In this document: positions 2,356 to 11,516 of the stretch, in pieces
Position numbering within the stretch: position 1 is the stretch's first letter
Layout: the number at the start of each line of letters is the position of its first letter
Source of the DNA: Candidatus Hydrothermarchaeales archaeon
GTDB lineage: Archaea > Hydrothermarchaeota > Hydrothermarchaeia > Hydrothermarchaeales > JAZGAD01
DNA: 11,516 bases
Direction of reading: 5' to 3'
Assembly: GCA_036444275.1 (NCBI GenBank)
Contig: JAZGAD010000054.1
Span: 1-11,516, forward strand
Notes under the pieces: model-generated
Databases searched by the model: none
What the model was told of the DNA's origin: nothing
The model's input: the letters and a program-made list of their open reading frames with translations, nothing else
Position numbers and translations under genes: made by a program

Positions 2356-2365
2356 TTTTTAATTT
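2356..2365 (+). terminator. Possible archaeal oligo-T terminator after priS
   Basis: TTTTTAATTT begins 12 bp after the priS stop. Confidence 0.35.
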
Positions 2366-2367
2366 GT
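2363..2367 (+). repeat. Left target-site duplication TTTGT
   Basis: Directly abuts the left TIR; identical to 7067-7071. Confidence 0.9.
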
Positions 2368-2387
2368 CAGTAGACCACAATGTAGAT
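2368..2387 (+). repeat. Left terminal inverted repeat CAGTAGACCACAATGTAGAT
   Basis: Exact reverse complement of 7047-7066. The CAGT terminus is typical of ISH3-family ends. Confidence 0.93.
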
Positions 2388-2396
2388 TTATGGTCC

Positions 2397-2594
2397 AAGG
2401 AATTCATGGAGCATTATCACAAGCGGAGCAACGTTGAAACAACCTTCCATATGCTCAAAATGAAATTTGGAGACAAGCTTAAATCCAAGAATCCAGTGGC
2501 ACAGGAGAATGAGTTATTGTGTAAGGTGATAGCTCATAACATAGTGGTCTTGATACATGAGATGCACGAGCTAGGTATAACACCTAGCTTCTAA
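2397..2594 (+). pseudogene. C-terminal fragment of a DDE transposase (IS5/IS4-like, DDE_Tnp_1-type)
   Basis: EFMEHYHKRSNVETTFHMLKMKFG...NELLCKVIAHNI carries the Y-x-x-R-x-x-x-E-x6-K signature around the catalytic Glu. Only ~65 aa remain. The listed ORF start at 2364 runs through the TSD/TIR and is not a real start. Left boundary is approximate. Confidence 0.85.
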
Positions 2595-3065
2595 TTTCTT
2601 TATTTTTTCTTTTGTTATAAAAGGTAAGGGTTCAGTCGTCTCTATAACATTCATTATTATTTCATAGTTCTCTATTTCAGTAGGTGGGATTATTAAAAAA
2701 GATATTGGTATTGTTTGGTCTTTCTCAAAGTCACACCATTTACTATTAGGAAAGGTTGGAGGGATATAAGGTAGAAGTTGATTAGTCTTTTTATCCTTTA
2801 GTCTCCATTCTATGTGTGCTCTCCCTTCTGCCCCATTGTTAGTAGCTGCGGTACTAACTCTATATTGAGTGGGTTCTTGCGGTATTTCAATATTAAAAAA
2901 CTGTTCTTTTAATTTTTCAATTGTACTAGGTGGAGGTGGTTCAATTTTCTCGTGGCTAATGACACCAAAAATTATGATAGGTGTTTTTGGACTACTATCC
3001 CAATCATAAACCCAGTATAAACCGCCAATTAACAGAACAATTACTATTATTGAACTTTTTTTCAT
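2571..3065 (-). CDS. Hypothetical membrane-anchored/secreted protein (164 aa)
   Basis: MKKSSIIVIVLLIGGLYWVY signal anchor, PPPP linker, then a beta-rich Ig/CARDB-like region (VSTAATNNGAEG). ATG start. Overlaps the convergent transposase fragment by 24 bp. Confidence 0.7.
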   Translation of the reverse strand: MKKSSIIVIVLLIGGLYWVYDWDSSPKTPIIIFGVISHEKIEPPPPSTIEKLKEQFFNIEIPQEPTQYRVSTAATNNGAEGRAHIEWRLKDKKTNQLLPYIPPTFPNSKWCDFEKDQTIPISFLIIPPTEIENYEIIMNVIETTEPLPFITKEKIKKLEARCYT

Positions 3066-3088
3066 TGTTTTTAATAAAAGAATACAAT

Positions 3089-3146
3089 TGCTAATAAAGT
3101 CTAGCTTCTGCTAATAAAGTCTGCTAATTAAGTGACTAAATTAGCA
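3089..3146. repeat. Cluster of TGCTAAT(A/T)AAGT direct repeats plus a 25-bp near-palindrome
   Basis: TGCTAATAAAGTCT at 3089-3102 and 3109-3122; TGCTAATTAAGT at 3122-3133; TGCTAATTAAGT-G-ACTAAATTAGCA at 3122-3146 has 11 of 12 arm positions complementary. Confidence 0.85.
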
Positions 3147-3167
3147 AAGCCGAGACAATAGAAACTT

Positions 3168-3176
3168 GTTTATATA
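3168..3176 (+). promoter_or_regulatory. Putative TATA box for the 152-aa membrane gene
   Basis: TTTATATAA about 30-40 bp upstream of the ATG at 3208. Confidence 0.5.
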
Positions 3177-3192
3177 ATAACACTGTGGCTAG

Positions 3193-3651
3193 TTGTTAGG
3201 GAAAAGAATGGTAAATTTAGTCGTTCTCTTGATGGGAGCTGTAATAAGTATCGTATTATGTTTAATATGGCGTTGGCTTCGATATTCACAGATAGCACCT
3301 TCGATTACGTCAGATAAAAAGCTAACAAGAATGGGTCTAAGAGGACCTGCCTCTGTAGAGCATTATCATTGGGGGATACTCTTTGGGTTATCTGGATTTT
3401 TCCTCACCTATTATTGTCATCTTGCCCTAGATTCGTTATTTTGGATTGGTTTGGGGGTAATACTGATTCTTTCGGAATTTGCTCAAGAGAATCCTTTCGG
3501 TGCTGGAAAAGATCATTTTCAAACAACTAATATGATTACTGTTGTTCTGGTTGTGGTATTAATTTTAGCTTGGTTCTTCGGGCATGAAATTCTCTGTGCA
3601 AACTATATGGTGCGATTTTCTAGATTGAGTTTCATACTGGCATCAATATGA
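3193..3651 (+). CDS. Hypothetical integral membrane protein (~4 TM)
   Basis: Four hydrophobic segments; EHYHWGILFG and SEFAQENPFGAGKDHF motifs. ATG at 3208 is an alternative start to TTG at 3193. Confidence 0.7.
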   Translation: MLGKRMVNLVVLLMGAVISIVLCLIWRWLRYSQIAPSITSDKKLTRMGLRGPASVEHYHWGILFGLSGFFLTYYCHLALDSLFWIGLGVILILSEFAQENPFGAGKDHFQTTNMITVVLVVVLILAWFFGHEILCANYMVRFSRLSFILASI

Positions 3652-3659
3652 GAATCGTC

Positions 3660-3668
3660 TTTTAAATA
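3660..3668 (+). promoter_or_regulatory. Putative TATA box for the AlbA_2 gene (leaderless-type spacing)
   Basis: TTTTAAATA 21-29 bp upstream of the ATG at 3689. Confidence 0.5.
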
Positions 3669-3688
3669 ATCGTTAAAAAGAAATTAAG

Positions 3689-5047
3689 ATGGAGGGAAAG
3701 ATAGTGTACAATCCGTTTGATAAAAAAATTGATGATTTAGAATTCGATGACCTAAGGAAGTTGATTGAGGAAGAGGTCAAAGAGGGTTTTTACATCGAAT
3801 ATAAAACCGATTTTCAAAAGAATCAGAAAATTGCAAAATCAATTGCTTCTTTTGCAAATACTCATGGTGGGTGGTATTTTATCGGAGTCGAAGATCATGA
3901 AGATACAAATATTGCGAAGGAGTTAGTTGGATTTGGCATCAAAAAGAATAAACAACCACAAGAGAAGATTCGAGACATTGCTAAAGAACACATTCATCCC
4001 CTTCCTATTTTCCACATGAAATTAATTAAGTTCAAAAGAGATAGAGGGATCTTAGTAGTTTTTATTCCTGAGAGTTTTGAAACACCACATGTATTAAGTA
4101 ATGGAGTTATTTATCGGAGGAATGGAGAGCAATCCAGTCCAATACGAGAAACAGATAGATATGCATTGGATAAACTTTATCAGAAATCATTTAATTTTAA
4201 AGAAAGGGTTCTAAAGTTTTGTAAAGATCCCTTTGGGATTACTACCGGGGAAAGTGAAATTAGCCTTCCTTTCCTTAAAATGTATTTCGTGCCAAAGTGG
4301 TTTGATGATATCCATATAGATACTTTTTTCTCCGATGAATATTTAGAAGAAATAAAAGCTTTGATAAATCAAGAAGAAACTCTTTTCGAGTCGCATAAAG
4401 AAGTAGGGACATTTTCACTGACCTTTGAAAATATTACACGTGGTACTCATTCGATTATTTTCAGAGACATTTCTAGGAATGTTGGATTCTCAAACTTTAC
4501 TATCGAATTCTTCAATAATGGGTCCACTAAAATTAGGATACCAATTTCTTTCACTACTGGAATTAATCCTAAATACCAAACTGATCTTGATGATGAATAC
4601 CTTAATCGAATATATGATGAAATCGGTGATGAGATTGAGTTTTTCAAATTAGTAAATATTTATGATTTATTTTTCACAATAAGGTATGCGATACAAAAGT
4701 ATCAAAAATTCTTCGAGAAAATTGAAACTGATTCTAAGATATTAATGGCAATTGAATTAGAAAATATTTATCGACTTATCCCATTTATACAAAATGAGGT
4801 TTACTTAGATTATTTAAAAAAATATCATGTTCCCGTATGTATGTATAAATCTACGAGAGTTCCAGATGTATACAAACCTGAACCTTGGATTGTATTTGAT
4901 AAATTCCAAGGAAAGGATTTTATCTGGATATTAGTTACCGTCCTTAATGGATTGGGCCTAAGTACAATCAAAATAGGAGAAAAAACCATAATGGATGGTT
5001 TTGGTGATTATATTATAGAACTAAGCAAAAAAAATAAATCACCATAA
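3689..5047 (+). CDS. AlbA_2/Schlafen-domain protein with uncharacterised C-terminal domain (452 aa)
   Basis: EGFYIEYK...IAKSIASFANTHGGWYFIGVED...LVVFIPES..PH...GVIYRRNGEQSSP matches the AlbA_2 (Schlafen core) pattern E-x4-EfK, FAN-x-x-GG-x3-GV-x-D. Intact ORF, very AT-rich. Confidence 0.9.
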   Translation: MEGKIVYNPFDKKIDDLEFDDLRKLIEEEVKEGFYIEYKTDFQKNQKIAKSIASFANTHGGWYFIGVEDHEDTNIAKELVGFGIKKNKQPQEKIRDIAKEHIHPLPIFHMKLIKFKRDRGILVVFIPESFETPHVLSNGVIYRRNGEQSSPIRETDRYALDKLYQKSFNFKERVLKFCKDPFGITTGESEISLPFLKMYFVPKWFDDIHIDTFFSDEYLEEIKALINQEETLFESHKEVGTFSLTFENITRGTHSIIFRDISRNVGFSNFTIEFFNNGSTKIRIPISFTTGINPKYQTDLDDEYLNRIYDEIGDEIEFFKLVNIYDLFFTIRYAIQKYQKFFEKIETDSKILMAIELENIYRLIPFIQNEVYLDYLKKYHVPVCMYKSTRVPDVYKPEPWIVFDKFQGKDFIWILVTVLNGLGLSTIKIGEKTIMDGFGDYIIELSKKNKSP

Positions 5048-5057
5048 ATGTCGTATA

Positions 5058-5064
5058 TTTTTTT
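5058..5064 (+). terminator. Possible oligo-T terminator of the AlbA_2 gene
   Basis: T7 run starting 11 bp after the stop, between convergent genes. Confidence 0.45.
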
Positions 5065-5600
5065 ATTTGATTTCAGAAGCAGACACCAAGTTCCACTTTT
5101 TGATATAATCCCCAGATTGCCTGTCTATCGTTCTCTGTGGCTCGATTTTAATCCACTTCCCACTGGACAAACCCCTATGAGTGAGATCAGAATAATATCT
5201 GTTAGGATATCCTCCAAGATCATCTAACCGAACTAAGACCATTGCATGGCCCTCCGCTTCACCACTTGCTTTGAAGAAGCCCACAGCCGACTCCACACCC
5301 GCCCTCTCAAACAAAGCCCCTGTGAGGATAGAATAGTCATCACAGTCACCACTCTTTAGGCTCAGTGTCTCAACAGGTGCTCTGAAGATATTGTTCAAGT
5401 CACTCTCATAGTGAACATTGGCATTCAACCACCCTAGTATTTTCTTTAGCTTACTTACTTCAGAGCTGGAATCTTGCACTCCAGCGAAGCCTAAGACCGC
5501 ATCCAACATATTTCTAGCTTCATAGTAGCAATATTTGTTCCCCGCCTCAGCGTGGTACAAGTCACATTCATCGTCCCATTCAAGCCCAGCGAAGTCATGG
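5063..5600 (-). pseudogene. Transglutaminase-like (papain-fold) protein, 5'-truncated but catalytic domain intact
   Basis: WLNANVHYESD...PVETL..KSGDCDDYSILTGALF...GHAMVLV...WIKIEP gives a Cys-His-Glu candidate triad. Beyond ~5600 the open frame is the antisense of the ISH3 transposase, so the native N-terminus appears lost. Boundary is approximate. Confidence 0.8.
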
Positions 5601-6467
5601 AGTTGTTTGACGAGATATTTGGGATGACTCATGGGATAGCCAGGGCACTGGGTGAACTCAAGAAGCCTGTTGACGTAGCTATCGATATTACTGATCAACT
5701 CTACTATGGAAATAAGAGTGATTCCATGGTGGGGGGGGGGGGACCAAGCCTCAGAGGGGTACTAGCTATGCCTTTAGGTTTGCTACCATAAACATAGTCG
5801 AGAAGGGGATGAGGTTCACCCTCTTAGCACTGCCAATAGGTGTTTTGACCTCTAAGAAGAAGGTCGTAAGAAGACTAATTGAGTATGCACAGTCAAAATC
5901 AAGACCATATACCTTGACAGAGGTTTCTTCACCACTGAGATCATTAACTTGTTGGACGAATTGAATGTGAAATTCTTGATGCCAGCCATCCAAAACAAGC
6001 GGATCAAGGCGTTAGCAGACCAACATCAATCCCCTACTGTTATAGAGTACAAACTGGGTGTTAGAAGGAAACGAAAGAGTGGCAGGACATGGTACAGGGA
6101 TGATGCCACTTGGTTCAACCTCGTGATCGTGACCAACGAAGACGGGATCAAAAGGACTTTTGCTACCAATCTAGAGGTCAAAGAGGAAGATGCATTCAGC
6201 TTGTTTGATTTTTATGAGAAGCGATGGGGTATAGAAACCAGTTATCGTGTTAAAAACGGTTTCAGGGTCAGGACGACATCCAAGAACTACGTTGTCCGGC
6301 TCTTCTACTTCCTGTTGTCAACCTGCTTGTATAATCTCTGGGTGCTTGCCAACATTGCCGTAGCCCTATTAGTATACGGCAAGATCTTGGGGAAGCCCTT
6401 GATTAGTGCAAAGGTCTTCGGTACTATCCTATGCACGGCTCGTTTCATGATAGATAACGGTGGATAA
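5590..6467 (+). pseudogene. ISH3-family DDE transposase, 5'-truncated with two frameshifts
   Basis: Three frames join: VDVAIDITDQLYYG (D1) up to G12 at 5731-5742; TKPQRGTSYAFRFATINIV...FTLLALP from 5743; IKTIYLDRGFF (D2) from 5898 through FATNL, YEKRWGIETSYR (E), RTTSKNYVVRLFYFLLS...YNLWVL. All are ISH3-type motifs. No N-terminal region is recognisable upstream of ~5590. Confidence 0.88.
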
Positions 6468-6480
6468 ATAGCTTCAGGAA

Positions 6481-6488
6481 TTTATATA
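6481..6488 (+). promoter_or_regulatory. Putative TATA box for the passenger gene
   Basis: TTTATATA 27-34 bp upstream of the ATG at 6515. Confidence 0.55.
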
Positions 6489-6514
6489 TTCTATAAGTTA
6501 TCTAGAGCCTGGTA

Positions 6515-6982
6515 ATGGTTGAACATACGTTTTCTTCGGAAGAAAGAATAAAGAATATCGAGAATTTTTTGTTTTTCGGAGTGATTTTAATCGTTTCTTT
6601 TATTTTCATTAGTGATGAAAGATTTGGACCAATAAGGGATATGGAGTTGTTAGGAGACGTTCTAACTTTATTTGCGTTGTTTCCACTTTTCTTTTCGTAC
6701 TTACTTACCTTCTTCTATTTTTATAAAATAAGTAAAAGTTCAGGTGAATCCACTGCGAATACCGTTATAAATTCGATAGTCTCTTTTGTCGAAAATAATA
6801 AGTCGTGGCTTAGCTATCCTGTCACCTTATTTTTGATTTTAATATTCGTATTCGTTGCAAAATCCTTTCCAGGTGTGGGGTGGGAACATATAATACCACC
6901 AATACTCGGTGCTACGTTGTTTTATGTTTTAAAGATGCATCCAAAAATACACGAGAGGTTCAACAATCTCCGATTCAAATAA
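6515..6982 (+). CDS. Hypothetical integral membrane protein (~4 TM), transposon passenger gene
   Basis: 155 aa with four hydrophobic segments; AT-rich; lies between the transposase stop and the right TIR. Confidence 0.7.
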   Translation: MVEHTFSSEERIKNIENFLFFGVILIVSFIFISDERFGPIRDMELLGDVLTLFALFPLFFSYLLTFFYFYKISKSSGESTANTVINSIVSFVENNKSWLSYPVTLFLILIFVFVAKSFPGVGWEHIIPPILGATLFYVLKMHPKIHERFNNLRFK

Positions 6983-7046
6983 TACCTTTAGGGGGATCAA
7001 GAACAATTAATTAATTCCAACATCTACATTATATAATACCAAAATC

Positions 7047-7066
7047 ATCTACATTGTGGTCTACTG
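7047..7066 (-). repeat. Right terminal inverted repeat (ATCTACATTGTGGTCTACTG on + strand)
   Basis: 20/20 reverse complement of 2368-2387. Confidence 0.93.
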
Positions 7067-7071
7067 TTTGT
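7067..7071 (+). repeat. Right target-site duplication TTTGT
   Basis: Directly abuts the right TIR; identical to 2363-2367. Confidence 0.9.
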
Positions 7072-7159: not shown

Positions 7160-7657
7160 ATGTTCATCTGCGATATATGCTTAAAAAACGAGATCCTCTG
7201 CCCAGGATGCGAGGATAAATTACAAAAGGGTGACATCACCGAGTTGGAGGTAGCACTCTCCAAGACACTTTACAAGCTAAGTGACACATTTCCGGGTTTA
7301 AGAGCTGTGGAGTTACTAAGGGTGATCGAAGCCGATGAACTCGTGATTGTTCTCACCAAGAAGGGACATGCTAGGAGACTGGTTGGGAAAGGAGGGCGGG
7401 TTATTAAGGAGATTACCAAAGAGATGGGCAGAAAGGTAAAGGCATTGGAAGAAGCTGGGGATAAGGAGCTGGTGGAGGCTCTTCTCTTCCCAGCGCGAGT
7501 ACTAAGGGTAAATATCCTGTATCTACCTGGAGAAGGTGAGAAATTCAAGGTTCTCGTACCGAAAGGGGACGCTTCAAAGCTGCTGACCAGCGTGACCGCG
7601 CTACAAGAAGCCCTAAGGGAGCTCACTGGAAAGAATATGGTCATAGCGTTCGAATAA
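7160..7657 (+). CDS. Archaeal NusA-like KH-domain protein with N-terminal Cys cluster
   Basis: ICDICLKNEILCPGC N-terminus, KH loop LVGKGGRVIK, and LLFPARVLRVN. This is the archaeal NusA-like paralog pattern. Confidence 0.8.
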   Translation: MFICDICLKNEILCPGCEDKLQKGDITELEVALSKTLYKLSDTFPGLRAVELLRVIEADELVIVLTKKGHARRLVGKGGRVIKEITKEMGRKVKALEEAGDKELVEALLFPARVLRVNILYLPGEGEKFKVLVPKGDASKLLTSVTALQEALRELTGKNMVIAFE

Positions 7658-7688: not shown

Positions 7689-8837
7689 ATGCAATTGAAA
7701 AGCTCTAGGCTCAAAGGCATGCGGATAGCGCACTGCGTCACTGGGAGCGTGGCAGCCATCGAGGCACCGAAGATAGCACGGGAACTCAAGAGGCATGGCG
7801 CGCAAGTCCAAGTATACATGAGTAGAGCGGCCCAAAAGATCATCCACCCCTACACCATGCAGTTCGCTGCAGAGACGGTTGTAACAAAGCTAACAGGTGG
7901 GATGGAACACCTGCGAGAATTCGATCTCGTATTGATAGCACCTGCTACAGCAACAACCATGAGCAAGATAGCAGTGGGCATAGCAGACAGCCCGGTAACA
8001 GCACTGGCACTAGCGTCAAGGGCTAAGATGGTAATTGCACCAGCTATGGCTATGAAGATGTACGAGAGCCGTGCCTTAAAAGAGAATATTGAAAAACTTA
8101 AGGCGAGGGGATGTGTCTTTGTAGAGCCTAAATTCGAGGAGGGAAAGGCAAAGCTTGCACAGCTAGATGAGGTGGTAGACGCAGTTATCGCCGGACTTGT
8201 AGAGAAAAACTTAGCAGGTATGAAGGTGGTGGTAACAGCAGGCCCGACCATAGAATACATAGACCCTCTTAGGATAATCACCAATAAGAGTTCAGGCATG
8301 ATGGGCATAGAATTAGCGAAGGAGGCTTACCGCAGGGGGGCAGAGGTAAAGCTCATCTACGCCCCCGGATGTATCGAAGTACCTCGCTATTTGGATGTTG
8401 CTAGGGTTGAGACCTCTGCGGAGATGCTCTCACAAGTAAAAAAAAGTAAGTGCGACGTCTTCGTGTTTGCTGCTGCAGTCGCGGATTTCAGCCCGAAGAA
8501 AGCTAGGGAGAAGATAGACTCTAAAAAAGGCTGTATCGAACTCAATTTGTATCCTACGCCCAAGATCATCGATGAAGTGCAGGATTCAAAGGCAGTAAGA
8601 GTAGCCTTCAAGGCCCTGCATAATGCTTCAGGAAAGGAGTTAAAAACAGCTGCCAAGAATGCACTAGCGGAATATCATGTCGACATAGCTGTGGCAAACG
8701 ATGCATCAAAGGTGATGGGGGCTGAAGATAGCGAGGTCTATATCGCGACTGAGAAGAGCGTTGAGCATGTGCCTCTTGTCTCCAAGGCAGAGGTGGCCAA
8801 GCGCATCTGGGATACCGTTAAGGAATTAAAAAAATGA
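7689..8837 (+). CDS. coaBC: Bifunctional phosphopantothenoylcysteine decarboxylase / phosphopantothenate-cysteine ligase (Dfp)
   Basis: VTGSVAA, MEH, APATATTMSKIAVGIAD, PAM, EEGKAK; then VVVTAGPTIEYIDPLRIITNKSSG.MG, AAAVADF, KI, VAND. Confidence 0.96.
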   Translation: MQLKSSRLKGMRIAHCVTGSVAAIEAPKIARELKRHGAQVQVYMSRAAQKIIHPYTMQFAAETVVTKLTGGMEHLREFDLVLIAPATATTMSKIAVGIADSPVTALALASRAKMVIAPAMAMKMYESRALKENIEKLKARGCVFVEPKFEEGKAKLAQLDEVVDAVIAGLVEKNLAGMKVVVTAGPTIEYIDPLRIITNKSSGMMGIELAKEAYRRGAEVKLIYAPGCIEVPRYLDVARVETSAEMLSQVKKSKCDVFVFAAAVADFSPKKAREKIDSKKGCIELNLYPTPKIIDEVQDSKAVRVAFKALHNASGKELKTAAKNALAEYHVDIAVANDASKVMGAEDSEVYIATEKSVEHVPLVSKAEVAKRIWDTVKELKK

Positions 8838-9706
8838 GGGCCAGTGCTTTCGTACCAGGGCACATAACAGGCTTCTTCAAGCCGGTGAAGCACCGGGAAT
8901 ACCTAAGATACGGCTCCATAGGCTGTGGAGTTGTGATAAGCAAGGGCGTATACACCAATGTCCGTGTGAGAGAAGCCGAGAAGAACGCTCTCCACATTTT
9001 CATCGATGGAGAGGAGAAAACATGCCCAGTCACAGAGGCGGTAGCGAGGGATGTCCTGAAACTGGCAGACGGCAGGTATAAAGCAGAGATATTCCACGAG
9101 GTAGATATACCCATAAGTCAGGGCTTCGGGAGCAGTGCAGCTGGAGCATTGGGCACTGCTTTATGCCTCAGCAAGGCACTGCAGCTCCCTTTGACCCTTA
9201 ATCACTGCGGCGGGATCGCTCATCGAGCAGAGGTGAGGAACAAGACAGGGTTAGGGGATGTCATAGCAGAGTACTACGGCGGCTTAGTCGTGAGGCTAGC
9301 GCCCGGGGCACCAGGAATAGGAGTGATAGATAAAATCCCCTGTGAGGACTACGTTGTGGCTTGGGTGGTTGGGGAGCCGCTGGACACTAAAACAATCCTG
9401 CTGAACAAGAAGAAAAGCAAGAGGATCAGCTCGATGGCTGAGAAGTCCATGGAGTCTTTGTTTAGGTACCCCAACCCAGAGAACTTCCTTCAAGCATCGA
9501 GAAGGTTTGCCTTGGATTCACAGCTCATGAGCAAAGAGGTATACTCAGCCGTAAAGATTTTAGAGGAGAAGAACATACCTGCAAGTATGGTAATGCTTGG
9601 CAACTCAGTATTTACTCTCACCAGAGATCCAGAACGAGTAGAGCATGCTCTGGATTGCCCGAGCATTGTGGCTGAGATAGATTCCTTGGGAGCGAGGACA
9701 GTATGA
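8834..9706 (+). CDS. pok: Pantoate kinase (GHMP kinase family, PoK)
   Basis: AFVPGHITGFF, GSIGCG, PISQGFGSSAAGALG (GHMP loop), AHRAEV...TGLGDV, SMVMLGNSVF. ATGA overlap with coaBC. Confidence 0.93.
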   Translation: MRASAFVPGHITGFFKPVKHREYLRYGSIGCGVVISKGVYTNVRVREAEKNALHIFIDGEEKTCPVTEAVARDVLKLADGRYKAEIFHEVDIPISQGFGSSAAGALGTALCLSKALQLPLTLNHCGGIAHRAEVRNKTGLGDVIAEYYGGLVVRLAPGAPGIGVIDKIPCEDYVVAWVVGEPLDTKTILLNKKKSKRISSMAEKSMESLFRYPNPENFLQASRRFALDSQLMSKEVYSAVKILEEKNIPASMVMLGNSVFTLTRDPERVEHALDCPSIVAEIDSLGARTV

Positions 9707-11164: not shown

Positions 11165-11516
11165 CTACTTCTTAAGTTCCTCGATCTTCTTCCTCAGCTT
11201 CTCCAACTCTGCCTTTACGTCTACCCGGCCCTGCTGGTCCAGAACATAGACTATGCCCGCTAACAGCACGATGAGCACTAACACAATGAACCAAGGCGTC
11301 TCATAAAGGGGCTTGGGTGGTGGTGTTGATGTAGGAGTAGGCGCTGGTGTAGGAGCAGGAGCCGTCGAAATAGGCCCCTCAGTTAGAGGAGGCGGAAGCG
11401 TAGTAGGAGCAGGTGTCGTTGGTGGAGGAGGAGTAGTCGGTGGAAGTGTAGTCGCTAGTGGAAGCGTAGTAGAAGCAGGCGTAGCAGCCGGTGGAGGAAG
11501 AGTTACCGATCCCGAG
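11165..11516 (-). CDS. Pro/Thr-rich membrane-anchored surface protein, C-terminal part (5' end outside window)
   Basis: Manual translation: SGSVTLPPPAATPASTTLPLATTLPPTTPPPPTTPAPTTLPPPLTEGPISTAPAPTPAPTPTSTPPPKPLYETPWFIVLVLIVLLAGIVYVLDQQGRVDVKAELEKLRKKIEELKK*, stop TAG at 11165-11167. Absent from the ORF track because no start lies in the window. Confidence 0.85.
   Translation of the reverse strand, partial: SGSVTLPPPAATPASTTLPLATTLPPTTPPPPTTPAPTTLPPPLTEGPISTAPAPTPAPTPTSTPPPKPLYETPWFIVLVLIVLLAGIVYVLDQQGRVDVKAELEKLRKKIEELKK

Follow-up and report, generated by a model that had tools for sequence, protein, structure and literature searches.

The element and its insertion site

The window, i.e. 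the whole stretch of DNA analysed here (11,516 bp), is the entire contig C54 of an archaeal bin assigned to the Candidatus Hydrothermarchaeales (1.49 Mb, 61 contigs, 81% complete). It contains a 4,699-bp element (positions 2368-7066) between priS and a NusA-like gene, which is likely to be one decayed copy of an ISH3-related DDE cargo transposon that moved as a unit and whose transposase is now dead. The flanking genes, the terminal inverted repeats and the target-site duplications are located as follows:

1391-2344: priS, intact, upstream flank (TIGR00335, 1.1e-67)
2363-2367: left target-site duplication TTTGT; the same five bases lie directly outside both arms
2368-2387, plus strand: left terminal inverted repeat CAGTAGACCACAATGTAGAT, CAGT tip outward, 20 nt, 100% complementary to the right arm
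7047-7066, minus strand: right terminal inverted repeat (reverse complement of CAGTAGACCACAATGTAGAT), 20/20 pairing
7067-7071: right target-site duplication TTTGT, directly outside the right arm
7160-7657: NusA-like KH-domain gene, intact, downstream flank (NF005013, 6.6e-42, below the cut-off of this model)

The two arms, which are complementary at 20 of 20 positions and lie 4,659 nt apart, form by far the best inverted repeat of the window. Of 400 shuffled windows (200 shuffled as a whole and 200 block-wise in blocks of 500 nt), none contained a non-overlapping perfect inverted repeat of 20 nt; the longest ones measured 11 to 17 nt. A preliminary description of this DNA had reported perfect 20-nt ends of the ISH3 type and a TTTGT duplication around 4,699 bp, inserted between two genes without breaking either. 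These claims hold: the ends carry CAGT tips next to a 5-bp duplication, and both neighbouring genes are intact and separated by a spacer of 111 bp once the element is subtracted. The same description had excluded a composite transposon, which agrees with the finding of one ISH3-type transposase remnant instead of two flanking insertion sequence (IS) copies, and no repeat beyond the 20-nt arms was found.

The dead transposase and the ownership of the ends

As previously stated, the interior lacks an intact transposase gene. It contains remnants of two unrelated transposases:

5570-6467, plus strand: dead ISH3-type transposase gene, residues 104-400 of protein P0173 in three frames (5570-5737, 5740-5904 and 5889-6464)
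2398-2594, plus strand: remnant A, the last ~66 codons of a ~400-aa "IS5-like" transposase with SWIM and DDE_Tnp_1 domains (Pfam DDE_Tnp_1 2.1e-8, profile positions 150-200 of 200)

Compared with P0173 (400 aa), the nearest intact relative found, the dead gene lacks about 103 N-terminal codons and carries two frameshifts, and its three pieces share 45-73% identity with this protein. The first frameshift sits at a run of 12 G residues (5731-5742), which may be either genuinely prone to slippage or misread in its homopolymer length. The last 172 aa match the NCBIfam family transpos_ISH3 (4.8e-22), and the frame at 5949-6467 contains YEKRWGIETSYR, i.e. the motif Y-2-R-3-E-3-R, which replaces YREK in the ISH3 family. 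The score of the remnant (78.5 bits) lies below the 225-bit cut-off of the family model NF033541. The transposases of the related loci L118 and L167 and the corresponding frame of L107 have the ISH3 profile as their top match, yet they also remain below 225 bits (141-152 bits). Since every transposase scores below the NCBI cut-off (78-152 versus 225 bits), the clade lies outside the curated ISH3 family. The closest intact proteins in a large protein collection, P0173, P0174 and P0175 among them, are 385-400 aa long and 55-63% identical.

The metagenome stretch L107 encodes a relative of the dead gene, an intact-looking ISH3-like frame with 42% identity, and its right end, located 256 bp after the transposase stop, is identical to the left repeat of the window at 19 of 20 positions. 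Among the six metagenome stretches that match the 19-nt end pattern, L107 alone encodes such a relative. The end pattern was also found in five stretches within 596 Gb of genomes, which is about the chance level for 18 fixed bases, and these matches were discarded; beyond the end pattern, only L003 of these five and L107 of the six metagenome stretches share anything with the window.

Remnant A begins 10 bp inside the left end, which itself is intact. Its full-length homologues comprise 390-415 aa with 75-86% identity. NCBI gives them the name "IS5 family" (they reach 128 bits on NF033579, less than its cut-off), and the best named homologues come from Micrarchaeota and Altiarchaeia. Contigs of run X1 (contigs only, 0.07 of words) that match from position 2398 onward continue upstream into full-length genes of this family. 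Remnant A was considered as the owner of the ends and rejected: no window-like end was seen at 80 loci with full-length relatives, and L083 and L085, two identical copies of the remnant A family in one genome, are bounded by unrelated, GGCTTTGCC-type ends. Because the ends of its relatives are unlike those of the window, remnant A is not the cognate enzyme, and on sequence grounds the ends are assigned to the dead ISH3-related transposase gene.

Remnants of SWIM-DDE transposases are present in 6 of 35 genomes of the order (including G000 C33:59368-59484 and C19:17883-18014, and loci L019-L023), and no full-length SWIM-DDE transposase was seen in these genomes. All remnants retain the 3' end and are truncated at the 5' end, at approximately residues 11, 17, 21, 29, 38, 38, 42 and 61 of the 76-aa piece; the exception to this truncation is a longer C-terminal piece at a contig start (L020). 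An ISH3-type end abuts a SWIM-DDE remnant in the window and in L023, there in the opposite orientation and about 20 nt away. In L003, which belongs to a Bathyarchaeia metagenome-assembled genome (MAG), an ISH3-type end is found 1.1 kb from a SWIM-DDE remnant with an HNH-like gene (named by eye) in between.

Complete relatives and their common plan

Relatives of the dead gene were assembled into a set of 80 loci (135 of 599 candidate stretches were confirmed), and at 67 of these a right end of the CAGTAG type follows the transposase gene at a distance of 191-559 bp (median 200); in the window, the distance from the transposase stop to the outer right end is 599 bp. The relatives fall into clades with short and long transposases, and the dead gene of the window belongs to the short clade. 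The following elements could be delimited:

L216: 3,969 bp, duplication TCTTT, 18/18 perfect ends, MAG labelled Woesearchaeota
G101:C7: 7,226 bp, duplication CTTAA, short clade
G099:C26: 3,015 bp, duplication TCTTA, 17/17 ends, transposase broken by four stops
L217: miniature copy of 437 bp, duplication ACTTA, 17/17 ends
G045:C1: 10,478 bp, 4-bp duplication TAGA, Thermoplasmatales-like end
L159: 2,936 bp, duplication AAACC, long clade
L188: 4,059 bp, duplication AAGTT, long clade
G041:C59: 8,585 bp, duplication AATAT, long clade
G040:C3 (52660-73718): 21,059 bp, duplication CTTAA, long clade
G040:C4 (1022-23670): 22,649 bp, duplication TTTAA, long clade
L167: 4,339 bp, no readable duplication (the whole contig is bounded by both ends), long clade
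G041:C79: 6,140 bp, duplication not matching, long clade

All nine complete elements with 4-5-bp duplications carry cargo between the left end and the transposase gene, and their right ends lie about 200-560 bp downstream of the stop codon. The passenger span from the left end to the transposase is 1.2-20.9 kb in these nine relatives, a range that includes the 3.2 kb of the window, and their total length is 2.9-22.6 kb. The preliminary description had assumed that ISH3 elements consist of a transposase gene only and measure about 1.2-1.5 kb; this fits the ISfinder set as presented in the available part of PMC2266710, but not the clade to which the element belongs. The description had also reasoned that cargo acquired in situ would be probable if every other copy were a simple IS, and none of the nine complete relatives is transposase-only. 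Because all nine bear passengers, the element is better regarded as a decayed autonomous cargo transposon than as the special non-autonomous ISH3 derivative proposed there.

L216, G101:C7 and G099:C26 share an identical or near-identical CAGTAGATCGCAAAGTAA-type end. From left to right, L216 consists of the left end, a 458-aa membrane protein, a 228-aa glycosyltransferase (named by eye and from matches to glycosyltransferase-like genes of G000, not from Pfam), an 85-aa winged-helix gene, a 383-aa transposase, a 74-aa membrane open reading frame (ORF) and the right end. Its transposase part of ~1.6-1.8 kb can be aligned with those of G099, G157 and G084 at 85-87% identity, whereas the left-hand cargo is unalignable, which indicates that the cargo turns over. 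At the position of the winged-helix gene of L216, the loci G099, G157 and G084 contain sequence that is 86-87% identical, and a homologue of this gene lies upstream in L118.

The transposases of the long clade comprise 519-520 aa with DUF772 and DDE_Tnp_1 domains and are encoded in MAGs labelled Thermoplasmatales and similar. In six of seven long-clade elements a helix-turn-helix gene runs into the left end, L159 being the exception. The cargo varies and includes two UbiA prenyltransferases, a KaiC-like ATPase, a DsbD/redoxin protein, an ArsP permease, a caspase-RNase HII fusion, a methylase with DUF499 and YaaC-like proteins, and PKD-like secreted proteins (named by eye). Left and right ends of this clade agree at 12-17 of 20 positions, and an A-run at positions 17-21 is found in 10/10 left ends and 0/67 right ends.

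Several further features of related loci were recorded. The two G040 elements (loci L202-L205), which reside in one Thermoplasmatales-labelled MAG, encode transposases with 91% identity and have several cargo genes in common in a rearranged order; their cargo comprises a DNA methylase with DUF499 and YaaC-like proteins, a caspase-RNase HII fusion, NOV_C, ArsP and DsbD/redoxin. At four loci, a right end is followed by a left end after exactly 5 bp (L159, 1110/1116; L189, 1554/1560; L191, 1593/1599; L130, 4737/4743), and in L159 these 5 bp equal the element's own duplication. L126 and L131, in which no right end could be detected, show a forward-facing end ~202 bp downstream of the transposase gene. 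The arrangements at these six loci are tandem copies, insertions beside an existing end or assembled circle junctions, the last of which would bear on the mechanism of transposition. An ORF of at least 35 aa lies between the transposase stop and the right end at 20 of 67 loci, and the ~200-bp tail of L125, L128 and L141 contains a conserved 39-aa ORF with four cysteines (zinc-ribbon-like) on the opposite strand.

Passenger genes and base composition

Apart from the transposase remnants, the element contains five open frames:

2571-3065, minus strand: passenger ORF, 164 aa, N-terminal membrane anchor (by eye), no match in Pfam or PADLOC
3193-3651, plus strand: passenger ORF, 152 aa, hydrophobic, without family match
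3689-5047, plus strand: passenger Schlafen/AlbA_2 domain protein, 452 aa (Pfam PF04326, 9.2e-19)
5063-5698, minus strand: passenger gene with a transglutaminase-like cysteine protease fold, 211-aa frame (DUF553 3.8e-8, Transglut_core 2e-6)
6515-6982, plus strand: membrane ORF, 155 aa, between the transposase stop and the right end

The preliminary description had counted four intact non-transposase ORFs and three gene remnants. Intact frames are indeed present, but there are five of them, and two transposase remnants were identified, one of which is split over three frames. The Schlafen/AlbA_2 protein has 42 homologues of ~430-480 aa, all with PF04326, the best of which is 64% identical; identities of its homologues of 49-64% were recorded. 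The Pfam matches of the transglutaminase-like protein span residues 72-160 of the 211-aa frame, which probably starts later than annotated, since the initial ~43 codons share their DNA with the transposase remnant. Small membrane ORFs occupy the same place as the 155-aa ORF in L107, L118 and L216, without sequence similarity to it. None of the five passenger proteins matched a defence family in PADLOC.

The G+C content is 0.28-0.35 over approximately 2600-5000 and 6400-7000 and 0.42-0.47 over 5000-6400, and it shifts sharply at both bounds of the element. The genome has a mean of 0.465 (standard deviation 0.035, first percentile 0.348). By this comparison, most of the cargo is compositionally foreign, in contrast to the transposase remnant and the transglutaminase-like gene. 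A DPANN-like donor of the low-G+C cargo is plausible: the ends closest to those of the window are found in MAGs labelled Woesearchaeota or Nanoarchaeota and in L107, and the best named homologues of remnant A belong to Micrarchaeota and Altiarchaeia.

Second copies and the empty site

A tblastn search with the L107 and P0173 proteins revealed no intact cognate transposase: this genome yielded nothing but the dead copy and, on C14, a fragment of 69 aa, and an intact close relative was likewise missing from the 38 phylum genomes searched; the absence from a bin that is 81% complete is weak evidence. No relative of P0173 was found in viral contigs. End-like 20-mers with up to two mismatches occur in 3 of the 38 phylum genomes, including this one, and the reversed control pattern gave one match. 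On C6 of G000 (locus L117), two end-like copies (7816-7835 and 8859-8878; two and four mismatches to the window end) lie 1,043 bp apart in direct, not inverted, orientation with ~30 nt alike between them. They bracket a 72-aa ORF (XRE-type helix-turn-helix by eye) and a 140-aa membrane ORF, and no matching right end was found nearby.

An empty site was sought in the order and in run X1. In the order, priS lies upstream of the NusA-like gene at 0 of 11 loci, synteny of the NusA-like gene with the next gene downstream is conserved at 9 of 11, and the relatives are too distant for an empty-site comparison (32-47% identity). Run X1 contains a 95-97% identical relative of both flanks. One of its contigs ends at 2365, and another spans 7212 down to exactly 7067 and continues with 27 extra letters unlike the right end. 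The comparison reported no joint, and it covered almost nothing of the interior. These 27 letters and 3 more amount to the 30-letter overlap of 31-mers, which is compatible with an empty site, and this match was not counted as evidence.

Proposed history and alternative explanations

The bounds of the element and the family plan are directly visible in the data, and the chemistry of transposition is taken by analogy from IS4-related DDE families. In its normal plan, such an element would consist of a left end, passenger genes, the transposase gene, a short tail, often with a small membrane ORF, and a right end. The ISH3-related transposase would have bound both 20-nt ends, and all of the DNA between them would have been transferred as a single unit to the spacer of 111 bp that separates priS from the NusA-like gene, where filling-in of a staggered 5-bp cut would have generated TTTGT on each side. 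About 103 N-terminal codons of the transposase have been replaced by DNA with the transglutaminase-like gene on the opposite strand. Today, the element would be a fixed island of foreign passenger genes, mostly of low G+C content, since no intact cognate enzyme is present in the assembled genome. The data fit a death of the enzyme either before or after this landing.

Several observations weigh against the reading as a decayed cargo transposon that moved as a unit. Neither the 4.7-kb unit nor its passenger genes were found a second time, whether in the genome, in species-representative genomes or in metagenome contigs reached via the end pattern, so that transposition as a unit rests on the duplication and the family plan; furthermore, no empty site was shown directly. 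The nearest intact transposase is no more than 61-63% identical, the transposases of the complete relatives are 42-50% identical to that of the window, and their ends share the CAGTAG tip and few further positions with those of the window. The winged-helix gene that precedes the transposase of L216 is missing from the window. Two of five short-clade regions (G157 and G084) show no left end within ~10 kb, the duplication of G041:C79 does not match, and most long-clade loci lack a left end in the 3 kb upstream, which a motif search of whole records attributes to left ends lying far away. Finally, the G+C mosaic (0.33 / 0.45 / 0.33), the unrelated transposase piece and the truncation reveal internal rearrangements.

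Among the alternatives, it is rather unlikely, though a serious possibility, that the element landed after the loss of its transposase and was moved in trans by a related enzyme, similar to a mobile insertion cassette (MIC). This version, which is that of the preliminary description, departs from the preferred history in its timing alone. Enzyme-less derivatives of the family do move, as demonstrated by the 437-bp miniature copy with its 17/17 ends and its ACTTA duplication, and G099:C26 possesses perfect ends and a duplication despite a transposase broken by stops. The suggestion of the preliminary description that the element could be mobilised in trans is thus possible for this family; however, neither the genome nor the 38 phylum genomes contained an intact cognate beyond the dead copy and the C14 fragment, and no second copy of the unit was found. 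The description had further argued that perfect ends around a decayed transposase suggest movement after loss of the enzyme. This does not follow: the ends offer a target of 40 bp, which is small compared with the ~870-bp pseudogene and its two frameshifts, and they are natively perfect in L216 (18 nt), so that they carry no information on timing. The position of remnant A, 10 bp inside an intact end, provides a slight argument that the rearranged structure still transposed afterwards: in a copy that no longer moves, deletions arising at random would not have to stop short of the end, and the arrangement would be easier to understand if only end-sparing rearrangements were transposable. The same piece of an unrelated transposase, together with the G+C mosaic, indicates at least one later event somewhere in the history of the element and might even suggest that a transposase-only IS landed first and that passengers were inserted later between its ends. 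Such accretion in place is improbable, as it requires several end-sparing insertions on both sides of the transposase gene and has no counterpart among the nine complete relatives with duplications, none of which is transposase-only.

Both ends of the window lack the A-run of long-clade left ends and share GTAGA with 11 of 67 right ends. The element could therefore be read as a compound remnant with two right-type ends, the left of which is the last trace of a second, inverted copy. The dead gene, however, is of the short clade, in which natively perfect ends occur (18 nt in L216, 17/17 in G099), and nothing else of a second copy is left; this possibility was dropped as the main explanation and is very improbable. 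An assembly artefact, in which a foreign contig of low G+C content was joined into the host contig, could account for the sharp G+C change at the bounds, and the window represents an entire contig from a metagenome bin, with ends that overlap other contigs by 127 nt. Such a chimera, however, would not yield a 5-bp direct repeat outside a perfect inverted repeat. In addition, the preliminary description had called for a check of the assembly, and a second NCBI contig of different length (13,963 bp) was found to bear flank and interior proteins together: all eight tested proteins are the same there, three with another called start and the rest letter for letter. A one-off chimera is thus extremely improbable, and the arrangement is therefore not peculiar to a single assembly, though both contigs may share reads.

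Relation to known systems and significance

The reading as a decayed cargo transposon can be compared with several known systems. According to the available part of PMC2266710 (De Palmenaer, Siguier and Mahillon 2008), the ISH3 family of ISfinder comprises archaeal elements of 1,225-1,500 bp with CRGT ends, A+T-rich duplications of 4-5 bp and a DDE transposase in which Y-2-R-3-E-3-R takes the place of YREK. The element resembles this family in its archaeal host, its CAGT tips at both ends, its TTTGT duplication (5 bp in eight of the complete relatives and 4 bp in one), its transposase motif and its best-scoring NCBIfam transposase family. The described ISH3 elements contain the transposase only, whereas the element measures 4,699 bp with five other open frames, and its relatives reach 2.9-22.6 kb with passengers.

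In the same part of PMC2266710, additional DNA separating the left end from the transposase gene is noted for IS231 relatives alone. MICs and transporter IS, i.e. IS copies with passenger genes, are defined in PMC3129680 as far as its available part goes. As described in these parts of both sources, IS231/MIC231 of Bacillus cereus is similar to the present family in that passenger DNA lies between the left end and the transposase gene and that enzyme-less cassettes with the same ends, movable in trans, exist beside full elements; it differs in being bacterial, in belonging to the IS4 family proper and in its 10-12-bp duplications. The element has the IS-type inverted ends and the duplication around non-transposase genes that characterise a MIC. 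MICs, however, lack any transposase gene, whereas a truncated, frameshifted cognate is located at 5570-6467, and no helper enzyme was found elsewhere in the 1.49-Mb, 81%-complete genome or in 38 phylum genomes. Because it retains its own dead transposase gene, the element is not a strict MIC. Its architecture, like that of the nine relatives, is that of the transporter IS (PMC3129680, same part) or unit transposon, with one transposase gene and one pair of ends enclosing unrelated passengers; a unit transposon in the autonomous sense would possess an intact transposase of its own, and here ~103 codons are lost and two frameshifts are present.

To our knowledge, the known examples of transporter IS and unit transposons are bacterial. 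Cargo transposons are central to bacterial gene flow. For archaea, a survey from 2019 states that no DDE transposon with passenger genes had been detected (PMC6563490, in its available part), and in the available part of PMC13343696, which profiles archaeal IS, the word "passenger" is absent and "cargo" appears twice, both times in the title of a reference. No description of ISH3-related cargo transposons in archaea was found in a literature search.

The element is an ordinary-sized member of a cargo-carrying, ISH3-related clade, and the group is widespread and appears to be undescribed. It is tempting to go further and to regard the window as a dead member of a large undescribed family of ISH3-related archaeal cargo transposons that moves genes between distant lineages, a tentative proposal whose chances fall somewhat short of even. 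Members of such a family would measure 3-23 kb and combine CAGT tips, 5-bp duplications and a conserved right-hand transposition part with exchangeable left-hand cargo. The right-hand part would be formed by the transposase, with the winged-helix gene in front of it in L216 and closely related elements, and the long clade would instead possess a helix-turn-helix gene at the left end; the cargo would comprise surface proteins, glycosyltransferases, redox and transport genes, and defence-like sets with a methylase and DUF499. Since such elements are found in the phylum of the window as well as in MAGs with the labels Woesearchaeota, Nanoarchaeota and Thermoplasmatales, they would carry genes across large distances within the archaea, also between tiny DPANN cells and other lineages, and the low-G+C cargo described here would represent such an import.

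The ends and the dead enzyme of a fossil element have thus led to nine complete relatives with changing cargo in several archaeal phyla. The family offers a concrete and testable vehicle for gene transfer between archaea, and its ends are defined well enough for the design of a transposition assay. For annotation, matches to ISH3-like transposases in archaeal bins require a search for a far-off left end before they are called a simple IS.

Contig ends

The window overlaps the bin contigs C61 and C43 by 127 nt at its two ends (1-127 and 11390-11516), and these overlaps are assembly-graph joins. Scans of the window with Rfam and ARAGORN (for tRNA genes) gave no matches. The right end of the contig (11319-11503) contains a G/A/T-rich repeat with a period of 15-18 nt, a ~80% copy of which is also present on C43.

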